A stretch of 53,363 bases of DNA from Nitrososphaeraceae archaeon (lineage in GTDB: Archaea > Thermoproteota > Nitrososphaeria > Nitrososphaerales > Nitrososphaeraceae), in NCBI GenBank assembly GCA_035297365.1, contig DATGZA010000009.1:1-53363 (forward strand), in the 5' to 3' direction. Positions 37,203 to 52,375 of the stretch are shown here, piece by piece (position 1 is the stretch's first letter; each line of letters starts with the position of its first letter). Below the pieces are notes generated by a model. That model was not told where the DNA came from, did no database searches, and saw only the letters and a list, made by a program, of their open reading frames with translations. A program made the position numbers and the translations under genes.

Positions 37203-37855
37203 ATAATATATCAGATAGATCTTTATATATTTAAAAATTAGTATTTAAAATAGTTTTAATATCTTAATTTATAAAATTCATATTGAAATGAATTTCACAT
37301 ATTGGTAACATATGATTTTGTTATCAAGTTCAATTATATATAAAGAAACAAATAATACAAATACAAAATATAATCAAAGTTATCATCAGATGATCTTGAA
37401 GAGTAAATCTATACTTTGGATAAACTATTATATTATGTAGAATTCCCATGTCAACATCTTCATTTGTCCTATTAATTCTGTATTACGATATACTGCTAAT
37501 GACATGTTAAGTCGTGAGATGAATTCCATAAGTTGAATATATTTCACCTTCATTTTTTATTTTTAGATATTAAAAGATTTAAACATCAAAATCTGATGTA
37601 TATTGAGTAAAGTAGATCTCTTGGATTCACATAATACCAATTAATATCATTATTGACGATGCAACTAATCCCGTTAATATACTAAACCCAGATAAAAAAA
37701 TAGTTTGTTTTCTCATTTTATACTAAATAATATTTTTTCATTTATACGATTCTAAGAATTTTTCTAGCTGAATATTGTATCAAAGATTTTTATATAAAAT
37801 GTATTTAAGTTTTTTATTTAAGTATATTAGTATATGTTACTAATTTATTAAAATA

Positions 37856-40438
37856 TTATTGATGATTGTATAATATCTGTCTTTGAGAATTTTCATCATC
37901 ATTAACCATAATTGAATGATAATTATTCCCTTCTATTTCTGCGTGAGATATTAGAAAAATTTGCTTGAAGCTTTTATCATTTATTAATATATTCATTATA
38001 ATATTTCTTCTGGCTTCATCTAAGCTAGTTAATGGTTCATCTAAAATTATAAAATTGATCATTGGAATCTTTTTTTCTATATATTTAAAAGGTCTTATAG
38101 TTGACATAAGTTTTGATATGGCTATTCTAAGTGCCAAACCAAGCGCAGATTCATCTCCACCACTTAATTGTTCTTTGCTTTTTTGAACTCCATCTTTATC
38201 ATCTAATAGAGTCATTGTTAATCCATGAGATATTTTGTCTTTGATTTTTCGCATGGTACTTGATACATTTGCTATTTTATATCTTCCTTCAGTAAAAGGT
38301 ACAAGATAATAATTTGTGCTTCTCATTAAAACACTAGCAAGTTTACCTTCAACTATATCATTTGATATGAATCCATCAATTTCACCAATTAGAAACAAAA
38401 TATGCCTCAATGCATTCTCTTTTTCTTTTAATTCTTCTTCTGATTGAAGTAGATTATTAATTCTTTTTATTCTTAGATTGATCTCATTTCGTAACAAGGA
38501 AACATCGTCTTTAATGATTTCAATTAAATTAGATTTTTCTTTAATATGTATTGTTAGATCAGTTCTTTTGGAGATCAATTCATCAATATTTTGACACAAA
38601 AAGGGCCTCAATAGATCTTCTAAATTTACTATTTTTAAATTTTTATAATATTCTATTAAAAATTTATTAGTTGATTCTATTTGTAATTTTGCTTGATTTT
38701 GTTGTGAAAAAAGACTATCTATTTCATTCATTAATCTTATTAAGTTTATATTTTCTGATCTAAGTTTATCTTCAAAATTTTTGACAAGTTCTCTTGATGT
38801 AAAAATCTCATTTTCTTTTTTCATTATTTTTGAAAATAGATCATCAATTATTTTATATGTTGACTTGGATATTTCATAATTACATTGAGATAATTCTATA
38901 ATAGAATTTAGCTCGTCATAAAAGTGAAATCGTTTTTCTATCATTCCACTAATAATTGGAACGAGAAATTCTAAAGCTTGTTTTATATTTTTTTTATTAT
39001 CTAATTGTTTTTCTATTTTTTGTAATCGTTTTTCTATAATATCGATATCAATTTTAACAATATTTTCTTTTCGAGAAATATTATGTATTTCTCTTCTTAT
39101 ATTTGTAATCAAAATAGGATTATTATCTATAACATTTGAACATATTGGACAAGTATTATTATTACTGATATATTCCATACTACTTTTTTTAATATCAGAT
39201 AAAATTTGATTTGTATTTAGAAGATGTTTATGTTCATCTAATAATTTAACATTCTTGTCTTTTTCATTTCCAAGATTTTTTATATCCTCATCATTTTTCT
39301 TTATTTCTAGTTTTATATCTTGTAAATTATCAATAGAAATATTTTGAAAATCAAATGATGATAATCCAGACTGTAATACTAGACTTTTGATATGTTTCTC
39401 ATCACTTTCAATATTTTGTAAAATATCTCTAGCATTTTTAATATTACTTATTTTTGGATATTTTTGAATTTCTTCTAATAACATATTTATGGTAATATTT
39501 AGATTAAATATTTTATCTTGAAACTCTTTAATTCGATTTTTTTGAACTGATAAATTTTCTTTTTCGCGATCTGTAATTTTTTCTATATAATTTAGATTTT
39601 CTTGGTTTTTGTTAATAGTTTCAATATTTTTTTTTATCTCAAGTAATAATTCCTTTTTTGGATATGTAGCAAGAACATTCTCATCATGCAATAATTCTTT
39701 TTGTTCTATTGATAATTTTTCTTCTTTATCTTTCAAAATATTATTTTGCTTGTCTAATTCAATTCTTTCTATCATTAAATTTCCTATTTGAGTATTCAAA
39801 TTATTTATATCTTGATTAAGTTTATTTACTTTTTTTCTTAAATAATTTTTAATCTTGAAGTCAAATTCTTCCAAACCAAAGAGATTCTTTATAAGATCTC
39901 GTAATTCACTTGGATCAGCTAATGCCAGTTTATCTACCTCTTTTTGTCTAATATATATTGTTTTTTCTATAGCTTCAGGATAAATTCCTAATAGCGATTC
40001 TATTTCTCTATTAACTGTATTCGTTCCTCGACAGATTTGAACGAACTTACATTTATTATCATTGTTTACTCTCTCTTCCTTGAAGAGTAATGCAGAGGAT
40101 TTAATCGTGTTATTAATACTATAATTAGTTTCATTTTTTTGTAATTTTTTCTTTACTACCTCCATAGTTCTAATGACACGATATTGAACCTCACTAATCT
40201 CAAAAGTAACTATAACTTCACATTTTAATTCTCCATTTTTGATCAGTATTTTTCTATCTTTTTCTGCCATTAATTGTTCTCCTAAAATTCCCCAAAGAAT
40301 CGCTTCAATGAAACTTGTTTTTCCCATGGAATTTTTTCCCTTAATAAAAAAAAAGCCTTCTTTAAAATATCCATCTGAAGGAATTGAAATATTATGAAAA
40401 GGTTTAAAATTTCGTGCTTCAATTTTTAATATTTTCAT
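37856..40438 (-). CDS. rad50: Rad50/SbcC-like SMC ATPase
   Basis: Walker A GKNSMGKTS, Q-loop IYIRQ, central CPIC zinc hook, signature LSGGD, Walker B/D-loop ILDEPLTSLDE, ISH. Confidence 0.92.
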   Translation of the reverse strand: MKILKIEARNFKPFHNISIPSDGYFKEGFFFIKGKNSMGKTSFIEAILWGILGEQLMAEKDRKILIKNGELKCEVIVTFEISEVQYRVIRTMEVVKKKLQKNETNYSINNTIKSSALLFKEERVNNDNKCKFVQICRGTNTVNREIESLLGIYPEAIEKTIYIRQKEVDKLALADPSELRDLIKNLFGLEEFDFKIKNYLRKKVNKLNQDINNLNTQIGNLMIERIELDKQNNILKDKEEKLSIEQKELLHDENVLATYPKKELLLEIKKNIETINKNQENLNYIEKITDREKENLSVQKNRIKEFQDKIFNLNITINMLLEEIQKYPKISNIKNARDILQNIESDEKHIKSLVLQSGLSSFDFQNISIDNLQDIKLEIKKNDEDIKNLGNEKDKNVKLLDEHKHLLNTNQILSDIKKSSMEYISNNNTCPICSNVIDNNPILITNIRREIHNISRKENIVKIDIDIIEKRLQKIEKQLDNKKNIKQALEFLVPIISGMIEKRFHFYDELNSIIELSQCNYEISKSTYKIIDDLFSKIMKKENEIFTSRELVKNFEDKLRSENINLIRLMNEIDSLFSQQNQAKLQIESTNKFLIEYYKNLKIVNLEDLLRPFLCQNIDELISKRTDLTIHIKEKSNLIEIIKDDVSLLRNEINLRIKRINNLLQSEEELKEKENALRHILFLIGEIDGFISNDIVEGKLASVLMRSTNYYLVPFTEGRYKIANVSSTMRKIKDKISHGLTMTLLDDKDGVQKSKEQLSGGDESALGLALRIAISKLMSTIRPFKYIEKKIPMINFIILDEPLTSLDEARRNIIMNILINDKSFKQIFLISHAEIEGNNYHSIMVNDDENSQRQILYNHQ

Positions 40439-40448
40439 TATGAATCAC

Positions 40449-41747
40449 TTATTCTTTCAGAGCTTCAAAGAAAAATTTAGCCAATAAATTCGAATCTAAA
40501 TTGTGTTTTTTTAGATCTGCCTTTCTAGTAGAATCCACATATTCTTTAAATTCTTGTTCTGGATCTTCTATCAAATATTCAATAAATGGATCATCTTGTC
40601 CAATTTTATTACTAGATTCATTAAAATCTGAGTAATGTGGAACATCTAAAATAAATTCCACAATATTATATTCATTACTATCTAACGCAATCTTATTTAA
40701 ATATGATGCTATTTCATTAGGATGAAAGGAAGATCCATAATTTTTGTTACCTTTTAAGCTAATTTTAACTCTCGCGGCCGTAGAATAATTGTATTCAACA
40801 TTCAAATCATGTTGTTTAAATATATCCTTAACTCTTTCTATAATTTGTATATTAGTATCATTTTCTAATACTTTTACTTCTTCTACAATTATTTTTCTTT
40901 GACGTTTAAAAAATTTTGGATTTATTTTTAATTTATGTTCATGAGAATTTATATTTATTATTAAATAACCTTTTTGATAACTTTGTTCCCCAAAACTCCA
41001 TAGCTCTGTAGAACCAGAATACCATGCTGTATCAGTTACTTGTTGCATTTTATGGTTATCTCCAAGAGCTACATAATCATAGTTTGCCATTAAAAAATCA
41101 CTATGTAACGTATTATTTTCTATCATTCCATGAGCTAATCCAACATTTATCATATTAGGATCAATGTTATTATTTTGAATTAAAATCCATTCTTTGTATT
41201 TTGTAAATAATTGAGACATATCGTTAGATTCGATTGATGGATGAGCATGAATTCTTAAGTTTAGTTCTTGGAAGTCTTTGAACAAAGGTTTCTTGTCTCT
41301 AATACTATCTCTTATATCAAAATAGGTAAATAGATGAACATTATCAAAGAGAATTGGATATTCACTCAATGTAGAAATTCGGTATTGTGTATATCTTCCA
41401 TGATTTCCGTCGATAAGCACTATAGGTATCTTATTGAGATGTAATGTTTTAAACGTCTCTGCAACAACTTTCCTAGCAAGTTCCGGTGGTGGATTGGGAT
41501 CATTTGCTGAAGGAGTATCAAAAAAATCTCCACTATGTAAAATAATATCTGGTTTTAGATTACTATCAGTTATAATTTCGTCTACGAATCTCTTCCAGAC
41601 ATTATAGAAATCATCTTCGATTGGCTTTATTTCTTGATTAATTATAGAAGGTCTTGTTCTTTTTGGTCTTTTACCAAGATGAGTATCAGAAATATGAATA
41701 ATCTTTAGAATAAACCTATCACCCTTATTTGGTAAATAAATAATCAT
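40449..41747 (-). CDS. mre11: Mre11/SbcD-like metallophosphoesterase nuclease
   Basis: HISDTHLG, HSGDFFD, DGNH, AHG, ALGDNH, YSGSTE..SFGE, KGY. Confidence 0.92.
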   Translation of the reverse strand: MIIYLPNKGDRFILKIIHISDTHLGKRPKRTRPSIINQEIKPIEDDFYNVWKRFVDEIITDSNLKPDIILHSGDFFDTPSANDPNPPPELARKVVAETFKTLHLNKIPIVLIDGNHGRYTQYRISTLSEYPILFDNVHLFTYFDIRDSIRDKKPLFKDFQELNLRIHAHPSIESNDMSQLFTKYKEWILIQNNNIDPNMINVGLAHGMIENNTLHSDFLMANYDYVALGDNHKMQQVTDTAWYSGSTELWSFGEQSYQKGYLIININSHEHKLKINPKFFKRQRKIIVEEVKVLENDTNIQIIERVKDIFKQHDLNVEYNYSTAARVKISLKGNKNYGSSFHPNEIASYLNKIALDSNEYNIVEFILDVPHYSDFNESSNKIGQDDPFIEYLIEDPEQEFKEYVDSTRKADLKKHNLDSNLLAKFFFEALKE

Positions 41748-41752
41748 TCAAT

Positions 41753-43639
41753 TCAAAAATCATAACTATCTTGAGTATAAGAGAGATTGTTTTTTGACAT
41801 TTGATTATATGACAATAGTTTATTTTCTTTGATAAAACTTTCAGATAGATTAAAGACATTTAAAAATAATGGGGTTCCAGCAAATGAAAGTGGTGAAACT
41901 GGACCCTGACTCATAAAGGAATATTTTTTAGACTTAGTATTAAATGAGTTTGCAGGATCAGTAAATGACTTGTATAATTTGATAGCATTCTGGTCTGATA
42001 CCAACTCTTTCATAGTTACTAGATCGCTTCCTAAAGATAATCCAAACCCACAAAAAAGTATTCTTAATTGTTGCAATATGTCTTTGTGGATACTTGATAA
42101 AGAAGTACTAATAAACATCCATCCAAGTCCATATTTTCTAGTAGTTCTTACAGCATCTAATAATGCTAATCTTACATTTTCTAAATCGTTGGAGTTTTCA
42201 TATTTTTCTCTCCTTGCGAATCTATGTGCTTCATCCAATACAACTAAAGTATTTAAAGAATTATTTTGTTCCCAACTTTTTTCTCCCAAATAGATTAAGC
42301 CATAAAGAAGTCGCTTTAGAACTAGAGCTTGTATAGTTTCATTCCAATAATCTAATTTCATGTTATGAGCGCTTTGTAAAGAGAGATCAACTATTATCAT
42401 AGGTTTGTCATCAAAAGTAAATTTCTTTAGCAAGGAGTCTACAGTTTGTGCACCAGGTCTATAATGAAATAATTGACACATAGGTTTCCAGATTTTTTCA
42501 TAAATATAATCCTCATCTAATTCAGAAAGAACAGTGTTTAATCTTGACCGTGGTTCTGCTGTAGAATAGATTAGTAATTGAATATTTGGATTATGCAAAA
42601 TATTAAGTACTTTGTGAAATGATTCTAGTTCTACTAGATTGGTTAGAGTTATATGTTGTCTACTTTTTAATTCATTAATCAAAATATTTGCTGCATCTCT
42701 TTTATTTTCTCCCTTTATTGATAAATATGAAAAGAATGATGATTCATATAGAATTTCTTCAAAAAGATCCCATCTATCTAATATTAGATTTCTAATATTA
42801 ACTACTTCAAATTTTTTACCTAAAGATAATAAAACTTCTTTCATATTTATATAAAATGCATTATTTTTTTGCCTATTATAGATTTCAGTTGTATCAAAGA
42901 TTGTTTCTTTTGAAAACTCACCTACTGGATCAAATATCAATAATCCCATTGAGGGATATTTAGAATACGCCATAAAAATCATTTTAGCTAATGTTGATTT
43001 TCCAGAGCCTGTTGTACCAAATATTCCTAAATGATATGCTTCACCAGCTCCGTTGGGACCATCACCGAAATGTTTGAACCACATAGGTAATTTGGTTTTT
43101 GATCCATAAACATGTCCAAGATAAAATAATTTATCCAGATGTTTTTCTAATAGGGAATCTAACACGGCATCGTTTGTTAAATGAATGAATGTTCCTGTAG
43201 GAGGTACAGTTCCTAATAAACTAGTATCAAAAAAATTTTCCTCTTTATTATTACTAAATACTGCACTACACAGGAGTTTTCCGACATGTGTATCTTGAAT
43301 ACCACTTATAGGATTAACTAGACCTCTTTGTCGTGCAACAGATTTTATTGTTGGATCTTCTAACAGTGCATTTTTAAGCTCTATTTCAGTGATTTGTCCT
43401 AAGGAATAATTGGATTGTGAATCCTGTATGTATTTAAAAATCACTAATTCGCCAACTAATTTTTTAGTTACTGCATTATGTAAAATATTTAGACTTAATT
43501 CACTTGTAGATGATGGTGAGCCTATCGTACCTATAGGTTCGGTATTTAACAGTAATTGGTCTAGTTTATGATCACAACTTGATTTTATATCATAGTTTTC
43601 ATTATATTTGTTGGAATCATAATTTGCATTATTTTTCAT
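41753..43639 (-). CDS. herA: HerA-like ATPase/DNA translocase (HAS barrel + DUF87)
   Basis: N-terminal IGTIGSPS barrel, HLGIFGTTGSGKS, FDPVGEF, VVLDEAHRFA, RKYGLG. Confidence 0.92.
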   Translation of the reverse strand: MKNNANYDSNKYNENYDIKSSCDHKLDQLLLNTEPIGTIGSPSSTSELSLNILHNAVTKKLVGELVIFKYIQDSQSNYSLGQITEIELKNALLEDPTIKSVARQRGLVNPISGIQDTHVGKLLCSAVFSNNKEENFFDTSLLGTVPPTGTFIHLTNDAVLDSLLEKHLDKLFYLGHVYGSKTKLPMWFKHFGDGPNGAGEAYHLGIFGTTGSGKSTLAKMIFMAYSKYPSMGLLIFDPVGEFSKETIFDTTEIYNRQKNNAFYINMKEVLLSLGKKFEVVNIRNLILDRWDLFEEILYESSFFSYLSIKGENKRDAANILINELKSRQHITLTNLVELESFHKVLNILHNPNIQLLIYSTAEPRSRLNTVLSELDEDYIYEKIWKPMCQLFHYRPGAQTVDSLLKKFTFDDKPMIIVDLSLQSAHNMKLDYWNETIQALVLKRLLYGLIYLGEKSWEQNNSLNTLVVLDEAHRFARREKYENSNDLENVRLALLDAVRTTRKYGLGWMFISTSLSSIHKDILQQLRILFCGFGLSLGSDLVTMKELVSDQNAIKLYKSFTDPANSFNTKSKKYSFMSQGPVSPLSFAGTPLFLNVFNLSESFIKENKLLSYNQMSKNNLSYTQDSYDF

Positions 43640-43647
43640 ATTCTTTT

Positions 43648-44850
43648 TTACATCCCACTTTCTGTTCTATACGAATGCATTATAAAAATGATATCAGAGA
43701 CGTCTTCTCTAGTATTGTCTTTTTCAAGTTCTGCTAAACTATTCGTTAGAATTTGTTTATATGCAGGAATGGCTGGTGCTATATGCTTAACTATGCGATC
43801 TGCAAGATAGAGAGGATATGGCTCTATTATTGATGGAACGATACATTGATTTTTTATTGTTTGAAGTAATGGATGTAGTCTGTTGTTATCAATAGCTATC
43901 GAATATGGAATTTCTATCCTCAAAGCTGGCGACCATTTGTATGGCTTATAATATATAACATGAAGTTGTGTAATTTTTTCAAGCACATCATTCATTAAGC
44001 TTTCGAGCTCGTTGTGTTCCTTTTTGGAATTTTCATTATTTTCATAATAAAAATTTGGAATTTTCATATGCCAATTTTCTTTGATTGTAAATGGTCTTGG
44101 TATTGTGTATTCTCCCTCGTTTAATATCAAAGTTAAAATGGCGCGATCATCATAGTCTCTGGGCCAATCAAAAATATCTCCAATGTCATTTCGTGAAGTA
44201 TATTTTGGTATTCCTACCCATTGTTTTTCTACATTACTCGATTCTAAAATTATCTTATAAGAGAGTAGAAATTCCTTGTATGAATCTCTGATTTTATTGG
44301 CGGTAGTTGTTTTTCGTTTTTCTATGAAATCAATCGCTTTATACATATGTATAAGGCCAGTTGTAAGTGATCCATCCAAGAAAATTAGATTATATGGTGA
44401 ATTGGCTGCTAAATTTATCTCCATTTCAATCATTAGACCTCTTGCAGCAATCATATTTTCAGGATCATGTTTTTCAGTATTGATAAACACGTTATGATTT
44501 GGTGATTCCCATTTTCCCTTTTGTTGATTCGAAGACATTAAACCTTCTACACCTACAGTTCCTATAGCAATAAGATCAGTTCCAAGAAGTCTTTCTATAG
44601 CATACGCTCCATCTACTGCACAACACGTCAACGGTTGAGATTTTATTTCAGAATCATTTTTTAAAATACAGGATTTATCTAATTGGGAACGAAAGTAATT
44701 TTTTTTCTTTTTAATAGTATTGATTGAATTAAATAATTCGGTTCCAATCTGTGTTGTTTTGGATAACATTTCTTCAACCATGGAGGCTGGAATATCTAAA
44801 AATGGGTAATTACTAAAATTATTGTAAGTTGTTGCATCATTTCTACTCAT
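43648..44850 (-). CDS. nurA: NurA-like 5'-3' nuclease
   Basis: AVDGA, IFLDGSL, GIPK, YDDR, LRIEI, EPYPLYLAD; directly upstream of herA. Confidence 0.88.
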   Translation of the reverse strand: MSRNDATTYNNFSNYPFLDIPASMVEEMLSKTTQIGTELFNSINTIKKKKNYFRSQLDKSCILKNDSEIKSQPLTCCAVDGAYAIERLLGTDLIAIGTVGVEGLMSSNQQKGKWESPNHNVFINTEKHDPENMIAARGLMIEMEINLAANSPYNLIFLDGSLTTGLIHMYKAIDFIEKRKTTTANKIRDSYKEFLLSYKIILESSNVEKQWVGIPKYTSRNDIGDIFDWPRDYDDRAILTLILNEGEYTIPRPFTIKENWHMKIPNFYYENNENSKKEHNELESLMNDVLEKITQLHVIYYKPYKWSPALRIEIPYSIAIDNNRLHPLLQTIKNQCIVPSIIEPYPLYLADRIVKHIAPAIPAYKQILTNSLAELEKDNTREDVSDIIFIMHSYRTESGM

Positions 44851-45936
44851 GAATTATATCCAAATTGTTATTGTTTTTATTTAATTTTAATGATTGGTTT
44901 TTTTAAAAGGTCTATCCATCTGAGATTTATGTTTTATACTTTATATTAGACATATATTACCATTATTTTATAATATTGAAATATCGCAAGGTTTTAGACT
45001 TGAAGATATGTTTATTTCTATAAAATGAGCTATTAGTTATTATATTAACTATAAAGCTACAGAAATTCCAAATTTGGTCTAAAATTAGACATTAAAAACA
45101 ATATGAAAGTAGACGTAATATGTATATTTCTTTAGATTAATAGATAGATGTAGTGAATTTCTAATTTTTAATGATCCATAAAAATATGTAATTGTGTAAT
45201 TGAATCTTTAGATTCACATAAAATATGTCTAGTTTATATAATAAATGCATGATATATCAAATTAACATAAATATAGTATATTAGGTTATAGGAGAAATAA
45301 TTTTCAATTATTGCTTTAGTAATAATTTTAGAGGATCTGGGGAAATAGTACTTTTATTTCATGTATAGCTATATGTTTGTCGAAGAATGGATGTTGAAAT
45401 TGCAACATTTGTCAGAGGATATATTATGAATGTCGAACAATGGCTTGAAAATTCAAGCTGTAAAAGTAATGATTGCGATAGAATTTAATGGAGCATGTTG
45501 AGAAGATTAATCTTATAATAAAGGGTGTACTGATAAAAATGGCTATCCTAAAGTCATCGAATTCAATCATCCACAAGAAGTAAAATGTGAGTAATTACTT
45601 TTATATTTTGGCTTATTCGTGATGTTACTACAAGAGATAGACAGCGTTCAGATATAAAATACAACATATCTTAATCATTTTATTTTAATCCAGAACAATA
45701 AATAGCTAAAAAACCGAAAAATGGGATGAATAAGCAAATTTAATAATAACCACTGTAATTATTTCGTTTAACTTTTTAATAATTTTTTTAATATCGCACT
45801 ATTTTCAGCTAAAACAATAATATTTTACTTTCAATTCTTACATTATTTTAGAGTATACATCTCAGAATAGCTGGAATTTCAGTTTTAACAATAGAAATAT
45901 AAAACTTTTTATAAATTAGATTAATTTATTTCCTTA

Positions 45937-46414: not shown

Positions 46415-46969
46415 TTGAAATCGAATTATAAGAATATTGTCGGTATCTTGGGATTAATTATATCTTTTTTTGGCACCATCTTCTTTGGTTTAGAAACAAT
46501 ATATGGATCTGAAGAATCATTTTCATCATCTTTTCTAATATGTATTATAGGAATAATATTAGTAGGGTGGTGGCTTAAGCATGTAAAAAGAATTGGAATA
46601 AAGATTGCAATGACTATTTTGTTGATCGGTCAGTTATTAATATTTTTATTTCCTGAAAGTATTTTTCCTTTGGATAGAAATTATGGTAACAATATGACAT
46701 TTTTTGTTTTTATAGTTTTCCTCATTGGCATTACTGTATCTATTAAGAGTATTAGAAAAAGATATAAAATACGTCAAAACTTTTCAAAATCTATAAAGAA
46801 TCAGATACTTCAAAAACAGAGACACAAATGTGCAGCATGCAGAAAAATGCCTCCATTATTACACTTTGATCATAAGGATGGAAATAGATCTAATAATCGT
46901 TTAAAGAATTGTCAGGCTTTATGTCCAAATTGTCATTCAATAAAGACATTAAGACAGATAAGAGGATAA
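46415..46969 (+). CDS. Four-TM membrane protein fused to C-terminal HNH endonuclease
   Basis: Four hydrophobic segments, then CAAC...FDHKDGNRSNNRLKNCQALCPNCHSIKT. Confidence 0.88.
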   Translation: MKSNYKNIVGILGLIISFFGTIFFGLETIYGSEESFSSSFLICIIGIILVGWWLKHVKRIGIKIAMTILLIGQLLIFLFPESIFPLDRNYGNNMTFFVFIVFLIGITVSIKSIRKRYKIRQNFSKSIKNQILQKQRHKCAACRKMPPLLHFDHKDGNRSNNRLKNCQALCPNCHSIKTLRQIRG

Positions 46970-47079
46970 AAAATGATATATAAAATTAAAATCAAGGAAA
47001 TTAATTCCTTTGCTTTTTATATGATTTGGTGCTGTTAAATGTAATATGTTCTATTTTGAATGAACCCTTGATTTGATTG

Positions 47080-47760
47080 TTACATTTTATACATGAACGA
47101 TAACTTAATCCAATTGTATACATACTTTGGATTAGATTTTTATTTTTTGTAAAGAAAAAATCACGAAAACATTCTGTTCTGTGAAATACTGCATTACTCT
47201 TTCTTTCCTTTCAATTAAACTTTTTTTCTAAAGGTCAGTACAATTGATCTTTTAGATCTAGAAAATACATTTCTATGCATATCATGTGCCACCATCTGTA
47301 TATACTACATATCTTTCATACTTGTCAATTAGTAAATACATAAAATTATCCGCTACAAACATGTTTGTTCCCTTGCAAATATGTATTCCAAGCATAGATT
47401 TGTGAACTGCTTCGATTACAAACCCAAAATCAGTAATGATAATCTCATCAGAATATAATAATTACAGCTAAATCCATTTTCTTAAATTAATAACCTCGTT
47501 AAAGTGTTTCATACAAAATTAAAGTGTTAAATATCATAATGTCTTATAATATAATAACCACTGAATAATTTGTCTATAGCGAATTTCTGTAGCAGTATCC
47601 TTCCACAATCTAATGCCAACATAATGCCTCGTTACAACCTATGGACAATTTCAATACTCACATTCGGTGGTGTTGGAGAGAAAGATCTAGAATAATCATA
47701 TTGATATCCAACCATTGCGGCATGGTAGATATCTTTAATTACTTTCACAAACTCTCCAAC
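47080..47760 (-). pseudogene. IS6-family (IS240-like DDE) transposase remnant
   Basis: Reverse strand gives IEAVHKSMLGIHI...NMFVADNF...DKY...VYTDGGT*Y, KSLIER..RVMQYF and VYNWIKL with stops and frameshifts; boundaries approximate. Confidence 0.8.
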
Positions 47761-48823: not shown

Positions 48824-49282
48824 ATGTCTACAAATACAAATACAAATACAAATGAAATTGCAAAGTCAATAAATAAATTCCAAGATGAATCCAGAAAGAT
48901 ATACGAAAATAATATTGAAAGAATAAATCAATATCAGAACCAAATTATTGATACAAGTAAACACATTGCTGATAACTATATTGAATTACAAAAGAATACT
49001 GTCAATATCTATCAATCGACATATAGTCAAATCCTTGAGAATTTATCTCATTCATATTGGAAGGATTCAAATATTCCAGATAGATTTACTGAAGCATATA
49101 ATACAATCAACAAAAATGCTCTTGATAATATTACTGATACAACAAATTTCATCAATGAAATTGCTTTAAGAAATATAGAAACAGCCAACAAATCTATTGA
49201 ATATGCACAAAGATATTTCAATGATACAACTCGAAATTACTTCAACTATATCAGAAAATTAGAAAGACCTTACAACAAATAA
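48824..49282 (+). CDS. Asn/Gln-rich amphipathic helical protein (phasin-like)
   Basis: No Cys or Gly, helical periodicity, IADNYIELQK motif, ACAAAT x4 at the 5' end, T-rich tract after stop. Confidence 0.75.
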   Translation: MSTNTNTNTNEIAKSINKFQDESRKIYENNIERINQYQNQIIDTSKHIADNYIELQKNTVNIYQSTYSQILENLSHSYWKDSNIPDRFTEAYNTINKNALDNITDTTNFINEIALRNIETANKSIEYAQRYFNDTTRNYFNYIRKLERPYNK

Positions 49283-50876: not shown

Positions 50877-52375
50877 TTATTTGGGAACAGAGTTACTTTC
50901 TATTTCTTTGTCTTTTGTATTTTTTGCATTACTTTCTGAAAATTGTTCTTCAATCTTGTCTAATTTCTCTATATATTCCTTGCCGAAAATTCTGTCTTCC
51001 TGTTGTGTCTGTTTAAAAGTTTGTTCTGTACTCTGCCAGTTAATTCCATTATTTTCTCATCCCGTTCCTTTTGCTTGTCTAGAGTTTCTGTATAAGCAGA
51101 GTAGAATAGGATCATTGTGTAATTTAGATTTGAACAAAATTGAGCATCGGGTTTATTTGATTTATTACAATTATGACAGGTTTTTGCATTCAGTATATTT
51201 TTTGTATCTTTTATACTATAACCTTCAATTCCGATGCTTCCAAAATAGATTTAGAAGATTTGTTTACAATGCAATGAATGTAAATCACGGGTCTTTTTAA
51301 AGAGATTGTTCAGCTTGCTTGGTCTCTCAAGGTATGTTCTTTCAAAATCAATGATTTTACAGTCAAGCCGAGTGTCTTTGTAAGTATGGTGTACAAGATT
51401 TTGTTAACAAATTTTTAAGATATCATTTTCTGGTCTTGGAATTAATTTGTTATCATTACATAGTAACTTGGGAAAATAACTTCTTATAGATTCATGTATA
51501 AATTTTGTATAATGAGTTTTACTTAGTTGTTCTCCAAAATTACTATCTGCTAGAGATATAAACAAAAAAAGTATTGGGATTGTTGGCCTTGGTAGGATGA
51601 GAATCAATCCAGTCTTTAACGTATGGTATCGAGAAAATGCGGAAGGGTTCTATATTTCGTCTTGCTTTCTATTATGTCACTTCTGTATATTGTGTACCGT
51701 TAGATGATACTTTGAATTTGATATCCTTTAATCTTAGGACAAGTAACTCATGCAGCCTGCAGGAAGTATCGTTTGCCATAGCATGATAACAACGATCTCA
51801 TTTTTCTGGACAATATTTCAAGAATAGTGTATGATCTTCACTGGTCCATATATCAGAGGGTTTATAGGTTGATGTTTCCTTTCTTGAAAGTTGTTTGATT
51901 CCCTGCATACAAGCAGGAGTAATCCAATTCTTTTGGTCCAGTTCGCCATTATTATGTTCATAGTTATATTGATTGTATAGTCACCTGAAAAATTTATTTA
52001 AAACCATTTGCCTGCTGTTATATGTTCCTATCCATTTGTGATTAGGATCGTCTGATTCTTTTTTTCTTTAATGAACTCGAATAGGTAATTATATCTTCTT
52101 TTGTTATTTTTTCAAAGTCTTTGTAACCTAGATATTTATTAAATAAACAAATGGCTATGATATGCGTTGATATTGTACTGGATTTAACATTCTGGACATT
52201 ATGTTTATATTGCAGAAATTCATAAAGGATTGTTGCATTTTGTAGATTTATCAAAGTCATTTTTTAAAAAGAGAGTTGTAATAATGGGATGATGTTACTC
52301 CTTTGCTTAGTGACTGGATCTTTTTTCCAAGTCTATGGTAATGACATCGTCGTTATTTGCATAGGTCTTGGTCAT
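50877..52375 (-). pseudogene. Tyrosine recombinase/integrase remnant with C-terminal zinc ribbon
   Basis: DPNHKWIGTYN..QMVLNKFFR, STYKPSDIW, DRCYHAMANDTSCRLHELL.LRLKDI (catalytic Arg box), PY..RHSA, LKEHTLR, CHNC..NKPDAQFC; many stops and frameshifts; includes ORFs 52042..52260 and 51404..51607. Confidence 0.85.

Follow-up and report, generated by a model that had tools for sequence, protein, structure and literature searches.

The window analysed in this work is the complete contig DATGZA010000009.1 (C9), 53,363 nucleotides long, from a Nitrososphaeraceae archaeon (assembly GCA_035297365.1). The genome has 2.52 Mb in 110 contigs and is 97.1% complete. The window carries an operon of four genes in the order nurA, herA, mre11 and rad50, and this operon holds the organism's only Mre11-Rad50. 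Its features are the following (lengths in amino acids, aa).

43648..44850, minus strand: nurA, 400 aa, first gene of the operon; divergent NurA nuclease of the clade called here type A
41753..43639, minus strand: herA, 628 aa; hexameric ATPase of the FtsK/HerA superfamily, type A clade, with a DUF87 domain
40449..41747, minus strand: mre11, 432 aa; metallophosphoesterase nuclease of thaumarchaeal type
37856..40438, minus strand: rad50, 860 aa; SMC-like ATPase with a long coiled coil and a central zinc hook
44851..45936, no strand: AT-rich non-coding DNA upstream of nurA, presumed to be the promoter region
37203..37855, no strand: non-coding DNA downstream of rad50, collinear with close relatives

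The first-pass annotation of this DNA had described four intact, tightly packed genes at 37856-44850, and these limits are exact. The genes are co-oriented, with gaps of 8 bp (nurA/herA), 5 bp (herA/mre11) and 10 bp (mre11/rad50). The catalytic motifs of the four proteins are undamaged. The long non-coding flanks were also correctly noticed, as no open reading frame (ORF) of 60 aa or more is present in 37203-37855 or in 44851-45936. The description of the operon as very AT-rich holds only for rad50 (23.8% GC). The other three genes (nurA 31.8%, herA 29.4% and mre11 27.8%) lie within the range of the genome, which has a mean GC of 30.5% (1st to 99th percentile of 5-kb windows, 26.1-35.5%).

Contigs from the RNA libraries of four studies match nurA and herA with 95-99% identity, and one of them spans the nurA/herA junction. 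These contigs are short, and they cover mre11 and rad50 in part only. The coverage of nurA and herA is a weak hint of expression, as DNA carry-over could also produce it. In one RNA run (X17), a joint between 37827 and 44874 resembled an allele that lacks the operon. We rejected it as a low-complexity artefact: its basis is a pair of 18-base AT-rich matches (TTTTTTATTTAA-like), and the rest of the 178-base contig that holds them does not fit.

Identity and copy number of the four proteins

The 400-aa protein alone matches no Pfam, NCBIfam or PADLOC model. An exhaustive HMMER search over 1.84 billion representatives recovered 393 related clusters (E ≤0.001). Among the aligned members of this family, 43 of 61 match the Pfam NurA model PF09376, and the family profile matches NurA of Pyrococcus furiosus (3tai) with the AVDG(A/S) motif aligned. 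The AlphaFold (AF2) model built from the family alignment has a predicted local distance difference test score (pLDDT) of 92.6; a model from the single sequence reached 33 and was discarded. Foldseek places only NurA structures among the ten best matches of the model in the PDB. The first is 2ygk from Sulfolobus solfataricus (E 2.4e-11), followed by 9x1m and 3tai. The residues D80, E144, D159 and D351 are among those invariant across the family. Given the PF09376 matches of its relatives, the profile match to 3tai, the model and its Foldseek matches, the protein is a NurA, with a predicted RNase H-like NurA fold and a conserved acidic active site.

The other three proteins are recognized directly. 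HerA matches DUF87 (E 8.5e-14) and has a Walker A motif GTTGSGKS at position 208 and a Walker B motif LVVLDE at 465. Its column identity averages 54% over 21 archaeal and bacterial sequences. Mre11 matches Metallophos (E 6.9e-11) and sbcd (E 1.7e-17). Aligned to the Methanocaldococcus jannaschii structures 3auz and 3av0, it shows the DxH, GD and GNH motifs and a 9-residue insert after motif I. Rad50 matches SMC_N (E 6.7e-17) and Rad50_Halo (E 2.1e-24). It presents a Walker A at position 34, the CPIC hook at 430, the LSGGD signature near 758 and a Walker B FIILDE at 796.

These are the same four kinds of protein found in the archaeal end-resection clusters, also in one co-oriented cluster and with a similar NurA fold, motifs and zinc hook. 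The solved references are 2ygk and 3tai for NurA, 4d2i for HerA and 9x1m for HerA-NurA. The order of the model clusters is herA-mre11-rad50-nurA in Sulfolobales and nurA-rad50-mre11-herA in Thermococcales, according to the available part of PMC13748450. The operon differs from them in its order, nurA-herA-mre11-rad50, and in its very remote HerA and NurA, which belong to a clade shared with Bacteria.

The first-pass annotation proposed a second resection machine, in addition to a canonical one elsewhere in the genome. This did not hold. The family-model searches found a single Mre11-like gene, with all other matches at or below 22 bits, and a single Rad50-like gene. The remaining SMC_N matches are SMC, the UvrA of the uvrABC cluster and ABC ATPases. 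The expectation of a second locus survives in a reduced form: the genome has no other full herA-mre11-rad50-nurA locus, but it has a second NurA-HerA pair on contig C26, patchy among relatives, as follows.

G000:C26:52915-56734 (L017:6916-10735), minus strand: second NurA-HerA pair, type B; NurA of 635 aa (24.8 bits) and HerA of 643 aa, overlapping by 20 bp

No Mre11 or Rad50 adjoins this pair. Its neighbour is a divergent gene (L017:11087-12079) for an HNH+HIT fusion, whose HIT part matches the PADLOC ThsC model (6.9e-11). The HerA of the pair matches the PADLOC 'type III coevolved' HerA model (2.7e-39). Type B is present in about 10 of the 24 congeners with 61-97% identity and is often fragmented. 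Its relatives at 29-36% identity (type C) occur in other families and also in G017, G012 and G018. So, it is the C26 pair, and not the operon, that looks accessory.

Inheritance in the genus and alternation in the family

We searched 24 further genomes drawn from the genus, all of them metagenome-assembled genomes (MAGs). Absence means here not found in those searched. Remote homologues can escape protein queries; family models were applied to the own genome and to five others. HerA was found in 21 of the 24 congeners (80-99% identity), Mre11 in 22 and NurA in 20. The cases without matches include two less complete genomes. G002 (69% complete) has Mre11 and lacks HerA and NurA, and G006 (73%) lacks all three. 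In G020, the contig begins inside herA. On the other hand, G016 is 97% complete and misses the HerA, Mre11 and NurA of the window type. Wherever the contigs permit, the order and adjacency of the genes are identical in the congeners.

The flank is shared as well. To the left of the operon, the window presents core genes at 25.6-31.6 kb (MCM, RFC, QueC, a radical-SAM protein and GTP cyclohydrolase I), then two zinc-ribbon proteins and a subtilase. The subtilase recurs beside the operon in G017, G012, G010 and G009. MCM is on the same contig as the operon in G017, G014, G010, G009, G015 and G023. The identities of MCM (98, 98, 92, 92 and 88-90%) and of HerA (99, 98, 88, 87 and 80-82%) follow the same ranking, and the MCM of G016 is the most divergent (86%). 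Two close relatives are collinear with the window between about 35.7 kb and about 48-50 kb, where the DNA is 88-97% identical. No close homologues of the operon were found in phages or in plasmids, where 7 of 72,556 records match, all with 31% identity or less. Conserved presence, synteny, MCM on the same contig and a divergence parallel to that of MCM thus show that the operon behaves, in this genus, like a chromosomal locus with vertical inheritance. The initial view of an accessory, horizontally mobile island does not agree with these data at the genus level: the operon is in 20-22 of the 24 congeners, depending on the gene, the flank is shared, and close plasmid or phage copies are missing.

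Some Mre11 matches present one in-frame stop (G018:C12:10343-11614, G024:C25:9760-11043, G003:C378:1845-3107 and G045:C3:558-1859). In G017, the mre11 frame is open and its first codon is not ATG, GTG or TTG. These cases may reflect assembly errors, decay or unusual starts.

The distribution is different at the family level, and only there is the patchiness suspected in the first-pass annotation present. Among 120 genomes of the family, the type A HerA was found in 11 of 14 genomes of genus g21, in both of g22 and in the single one of g20 (43% identity, with a stop). In g18, 4 of 14 genomes have it: a copy of 60% identity is interrupted by one stop, and the other three are fragments, of which two contain stops. 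Elsewhere there is one good match in g28 (1/10), besides fragments in g29 and g34 and weak matches (about 1e-3) in g25 and g30. No type A HerA was found in g19 (0/7), g32 (0/11) or g33 (0/7) of this sample. In 300 genomes of the order, a search at E ≤1e-20 recovered type A from 23 of the 73 that belong to the family and from a single genome of a different family, G181. The two largest remaining families gave no match (0/74 and 0/73). Type A can therefore be lost, as its patchiness in the family, its pseudogene remnants and its absence from other large families indicate.

The herA fragments of g18 and g34, most of them with in-frame stops (G099:C8:47670-48157, G127:C2:2623-2892, G079:C106:550-990 and G133:C288:3063-3191), look like decaying remnants of a type A module.

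In genomes with another type, type A is decayed or absent. G016 contains a type D operon, nurA(388)-herA(534)-mre11(479)-rad50(861) with lengths in aa, at L059:6512-13351 (G016:C232). Its NurA is recognized by Pfam, and its Rad50 has the hook. This operon lies between genes whose orthologues adjoin in the own genome, where the counterpart site (C63:66289-66496) is empty and about 200 bp long. The subtilase of G016 is 1.1 kb from a contig end, and the site syntenic to our operon would lie beyond that contig. The type D order is the same as in the window, and NurA-HerA-Mre11 is reported in Nitrososphaera-related MAGs and reference genomes (available part of PMC13707971, 2026). Thus, the gene order is not unusual. 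The genes of that report are untyped, and its available part describes Rad50 as undetected in those MAGs; in the window, rad50 directly follows.

Type D was also found in g32 (5/11), in g26 (2/2), in G043 and in one g21 genome. Type E is another set of HerA, Mre11 and Rad50, seen in closed genomes of g30 (G053) and g18 (G041), with a NurA in g30. The window proteins align with types D and E only near the ATPase and phosphoesterase motifs, at 22-37% identity over parts; likewise, the set of the closed genome G053 is unalignable to them beyond the ATPase motifs. The pattern is visible in several lineages. G043 has type D and a type A HerA with a stop. In g18, four genomes (G099, G127, G133 and G058) have stop-ridden type A fragments or the one-stop copy, and the closed genome G041 has type E. 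Type A is absent from g30. Conversely, in g21 the type A NurA-HerA pair is the only strong HerA match, and Mre11 and Rad50 are located elsewhere. One g21 genome, G072, presents genes of metallo-beta-lactamase fold on both sides of the type A pair (L053:8062-9057 and L053:13127-14095), the downstream one on the same strand.

At least five HerA-NurA types (A-E) alternate among the genera of one family. Type A nurA-herA occupies the place held in sister lineages by more canonical nurA-herA(-mre11-rad50) types. The functional equivalence of the types is supported by the D and E genomes that lack type A or keep only remnants of it, by g21 with A only, and by G016 with D instead of A.

A NurA-HerA module shared with Bacteria

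The operon is a chimera. It consists of thaumarchaeal mre11-rad50 and of a nurA-herA pair from an otherwise bacterial, DruA-linked clade. The named relatives of the window Mre11 belong to Nitrososphaeraceae, Nitrosotalea (55%) and Nitrosotenuis (48%), and then to Thorarchaeota (31-35%). At the order level, Mre11 of the window type is present in genera g1, g22, g25 (3/3, including G073, flagged as unpublished) and g34, and in three genomes of family f13; the f13 match at 55% identity is that of a single genome, G346, also flagged as unpublished. The mre11 and rad50 genes of g25 and g34 form a separate pair that lacks an upstream nurA-herA.

For NurA, 336 loci with relatives were found in 185,579 species genomes, and the best 80 of the 336 were analysed. 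They comprise 43 loci from Nitrososphaerales and 37 others, 36 of them bacterial and one labelled 'Thermoproteota archaeon'. The bacterial hosts represent at least 10 phyla and include Chloroflexota (many orders), Bacillota (including Caldanaerobacter), Nitrospira, Zixibacteria, Ignavibacteria, Latescibacteria, Poribacteria, Thermogutta, Planctomycetota and a spirochaete, among others. Their proteins have 43-55% (HerA) and 36-46% (NurA) identity with those of the window. HerA follows NurA in 77 of these best 80 loci, and the contigs of the remaining three stop first. Mre11 follows HerA in 21 loci, all of g1 or g22 kind, and in none of the 37 loci outside Nitrososphaerales.

We built a HerA tree of 55 rows (17 Nitrososphaeraceae, 2 other archaea, 32 bacteria and 4 outgroups; 24 near-duplicate Nitrososphaeraceae rows were left out) and a NurA tree of 51 rows. 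The Nitrososphaeraceae form one well-supported group in both (HerA 98, NurA 100). The two other archaeal sequences are placed among the bacteria. The family's other HerA types, used as outgroup, gave the HerA tree an unreliable root, with outgroup branches of 2-9 changes per column, so we name neither a donor nor a direction of transfer. As far as distribution can suggest it, an import of NurA-HerA into archaea is favoured, given the breadth of the clade among bacteria and its restriction to part of a single archaeal family. The HerA and NurA motifs that the first-pass annotation had singled out are the consensus of the type A clade. Its statement that the proteins are unlike housekeeping orthologues is right for NurA-HerA, whose clade is shared with Bacteria and stands very far from the HerA types otherwise seen in the family; it is not right for the thaumarchaeal Mre11.

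In Bacteria, the pair has a nearly constant neighbour. Pfam searches on 12 bacterial loci showed a full-length DruA (PF14236, 1e-62 to 1e-112) directly upstream of nurA in 10 of them. With tblastn, DruA was located upstream of nurA in 36 of the 37 loci outside Nitrososphaerales, the exception being L098. The PADLOC DruA model PDLC00002 is matched over its full length (1e-85 to 1e-115). DruA is the signature gene of Druantia type I. The triad DruA-NurA-HerA can be seen at L106:6821-10898, L138:6788-10957 and L086:6538-10867 (range L084-L141). It resembles the operon in the nurA-then-herA order and the short gap or overlap. It differs in having DruA directly upstream and no adjoining Mre11 or Rad50, whereas the window has mre11-rad50 and no DruA. 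In fact, the search for DruA was negative at all 43 Nitrososphaerales loci (28 of them with at least 1.2 kb upstream), at the G181 locus, in the window and in the own genome.

The neighbours of the triads are mixed: many are ordinary metabolic genes, and some are toxin-antitoxin genes (HepT, PIN), a STAND nucleoside triphosphatase (NTPase; NB-ARC) or conjugation genes (TraG-like). The NurA of the triad matched no model of PADLOC v2 or NCBIfam r20, and NCBIfam has none for DruA. We did not find the triad described in the literature searched. DruA-NurA-HerA is a candidate for a new Druantia-related system. In one Poribacteria locus (L122:6028-7980), the triad's DruA carries a fused DUF4096 domain at its N-terminus; this domain is the N-terminus of IS4/5 transposases. 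One paper describes DUF4338 as a GNAT-like domain.

A NurA-HerA pair without DruA, as in the window, is also known from Deinococcus radiodurans. It is used in end resection, according to the literature cited in the available part of PMC12977600. Its structure (7f6d) is a weak match to the window NurA (rank 31, E 9.7e-4) and is not matched by the HerA profile at E ≤0.01.

Surroundings and role of the operon

The right flank, upstream of the operon, is gene-poor. Apart from dispersed repeats, it contains an HNH gene and a fragment of an integrase.

46415..46969, plus strand: HNH-motif protein, 184 aa, membrane-anchored; treated here as a neighbour of the system
52042..52260, minus strand: N-terminal fragment of a tyrosine-recombinase integrase, 72 aa (Phage_int_SAM_4, 3.9e-6)

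The HNH nuclease gene announced in the first-pass annotation is thus present. In its translation, about four hydrophobic segments near the N-terminus precede a Cys/His HNH motif in the C-terminal part. It matches Pfam HNH weakly (1.3e-3 and 3.3e-3) and PADLOC ZorE/HNH at 4.8e-8. The gene is kept in close relatives, with 93% DNA identity in G017. An HNH protein anchored in the membrane is unusual.

Of the insertion sequence (IS) and integrase debris described there, the integrase fragment is real, and no transposase domain appeared among the flank ORFs scanned in the window. The segment 44851-45028 is collinear with G017 at 96.9% identity. Beyond it, G017 has about 1 kb more with a DDE transposase (L050:14204-15055, contig G017:C10; PF01609, 4.9e-11) directly upstream of nurA, and its operon proteins are 96-99% identical to those of the window, which lacks this transposase. 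Two segments, 47053-47438 and 48824-49282, have copies of 64-75% identity on at least 5 other contigs of the genome. The second contains a 152-aa Asn/Ile-rich ORF with no family match. At the contig end (53170-53363), the last 140-194 bases recur at the ends of C96 and C47 and inside C51; this repeat probably caused the assembly break. The Rfam and tRNA scans of the window were empty, and PADLOC reported no defence system in either flank.

We consider that the operon is probably the cell's machine for processing DNA double-strand ends, for homologous recombination and replication-fork repair (probability about 0.6). This reading rests on the intact genes and motifs, the NurA fold, the sole copy, the genus-wide presence with the same order and flank, and the linkage to MCM. 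The alternation of type A with types D and E, the lack of PADLOC defence systems in the flank and the weak hint of expression point in the same direction. The four proteins would act together, on chromosomal breaks. The DNA ends would be bound and trimmed by the Mre11 nuclease together with two Rad50 subunits that the CPIC zinc hook links into a dimer. Then, a HerA hexamer would pump the duplex into a NurA dimer, whose digestion would yield a recombinogenic end. These steps are taken over, by homology, from the archaeal complexes already studied.

Several observations weigh against this reading. All four proteins are far below the cut-offs of the NCBIfam equivalog models (22 of 800 bits for HerA_Thermprot, 38 of 500 for Mre11_Sulfo and 86 of 1000 for Rad50_Halo). 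The best PDB match of the type A HerA profile is 9c1m, the HerA of the anti-phage system HerA-DUF4297 (7.5e-12), and the archaeal repair HerAs 4d2i and 9x1l are matched at about 4e-4 only. The relatives in Bacteria are linked to DruA, type A can be lost, and the right flank has the HNH gene, the integrase fragment and the repeats. The literature brings doubts as well. The HerA-NurA of Thermococcus kodakarensis degrades both strands, and its role in resection is questioned (available part of PMC12977600, 2026). Bacterial NurA-HerA is said to act mainly in defence (available part of PMC13748450, a 2026 review).

These points could instead indicate a system for the destruction of invader DNA. Mre11-Rad50 would detect the free ends of entering linear viral or plasmid DNA, replacing DruA as the sensor, and HerA-NurA would degrade both strands processively, keeping the defensive function supposed for it in the bacterial triads. 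The DruA linkage, with matches over the full DruA model, the resemblance to 9c1m, the published doubts on resection and the dispensability of type A, which is patchy and decaying in the family, keep such a role in consideration. Some triads are beside toxin-antitoxin, STAND NTPase or conjugation genes, the HNH gene and the integrase fragment would fit, and antiviral roles for HerA-NurA have been proposed (available parts of PMC12977600 and PMC13748450). However, we judge it unlikely. A purely defensive operon is hard to reconcile with the only Mre11-Rad50 of the genome and with a locus stable and syntenic in the genus, near replication genes. The archaeal loci have no DruA, and many bacterial triads sit among ordinary metabolic genes. 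Type A is not enriched on plasmids or phages. PADLOC has no model for this NurA, and its HerA and LmuB/mad3 matches are weak (top HerA-model score 54.8 bits). The NCBIfam HerA_antiphage model gives 25.6 bits for a cut-off of 800. Moreover, the defensive role of the DruA-linked pairs is itself a supposition. The defence role suggested in the first-pass annotation receives some unexpected backing from the bacterial relatives of the pair, nearly always preceded by DruA.

The HerA anti-phage systems (HerA-DUF4297, 9c1m; Sir2-HerA; TdpAB, 8wet/8wfd) likewise combine a hexamer of the HerA family with a nuclease. The HerA profile matches TdpA (1.1e-6), and the NurA model matches chain 8wfd_G (6.2e-5). 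They differ from the operon, where the partner is NurA, the neighbours are NurA and Mre11, and there is no Sir2 or DUF4297. Phosphorothioate modification genes were not seen in the window. We also considered Lamassu and MADS, given the weak PADLOC matches of Rad50 to mad3 (8.2e-16) and LmuB (2.9e-12) and of HerA to mad8 (8.2e-13). We rejected them, as this is a generic similarity of ATPase heads, the zinc hook and the adjoining Mre11 are as in Rad50, and no LmuA-type effector is present.

A double use, as in the bacterial RecBCD, would join both functions. The machine would resect chromosomal breaks and also destroy unprotected linear foreign DNA, with the C26 pair as a separate, accessory element. 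The sole copy and the conservation in the genus agree with the repair half, and the DruA link of the clade with the defence half. An earlier proposal of two digestion modes for the Sulfolobus HerA-NurA is cited in the available part of PMC12977600. The patchy C26 pair, with its HNH+HIT neighbour and its HerA of the 'type III coevolved' model, fits such a picture. Nevertheless, it seems quite improbable to us. The operon showed no element that could tell self from non-self (a Chi-like site or a modification gene, for example), and the evidence gathered does not separate double use from repair or from defence.

A more specific scenario concerns the origin of the pair. The nurA-herA genes could be a domesticated part of the bacterial DruA-NurA-HerA system, widespread and as yet undescribed. 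In one branch of the Nitrososphaeraceae, DruA would have been dropped and the pair wired to the native Mre11-Rad50, giving a machine that senses free ends, degrades linear invader DNA and possibly repairs too. We put it forward as a doubtful possibility. If true, the bacterial triad would qualify as a new defence system related to Druantia, in which NurA-HerA is the effector, and it would offer a first handle on the function of DruA.

The results have consequences for annotation. The KEGG and Pfam thresholds miss the NurA of the operon, and the NCBIfam equivalogs miss all four proteins. For the biology of defence, the coupling with DruA may outweigh the operon itself, as it provides a hypothesis for DruA and for the debate on repair versus antiviral roles of HerA-NurA. 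Finally, the soil ammonia oxidisers do not have one common inherited end-resection set. The type of this genome, which joins a native Mre11-Rad50 to a NurA-HerA whose clade is shared with Bacteria, would be a clear case of module swapping in a core pathway of DNA repair.

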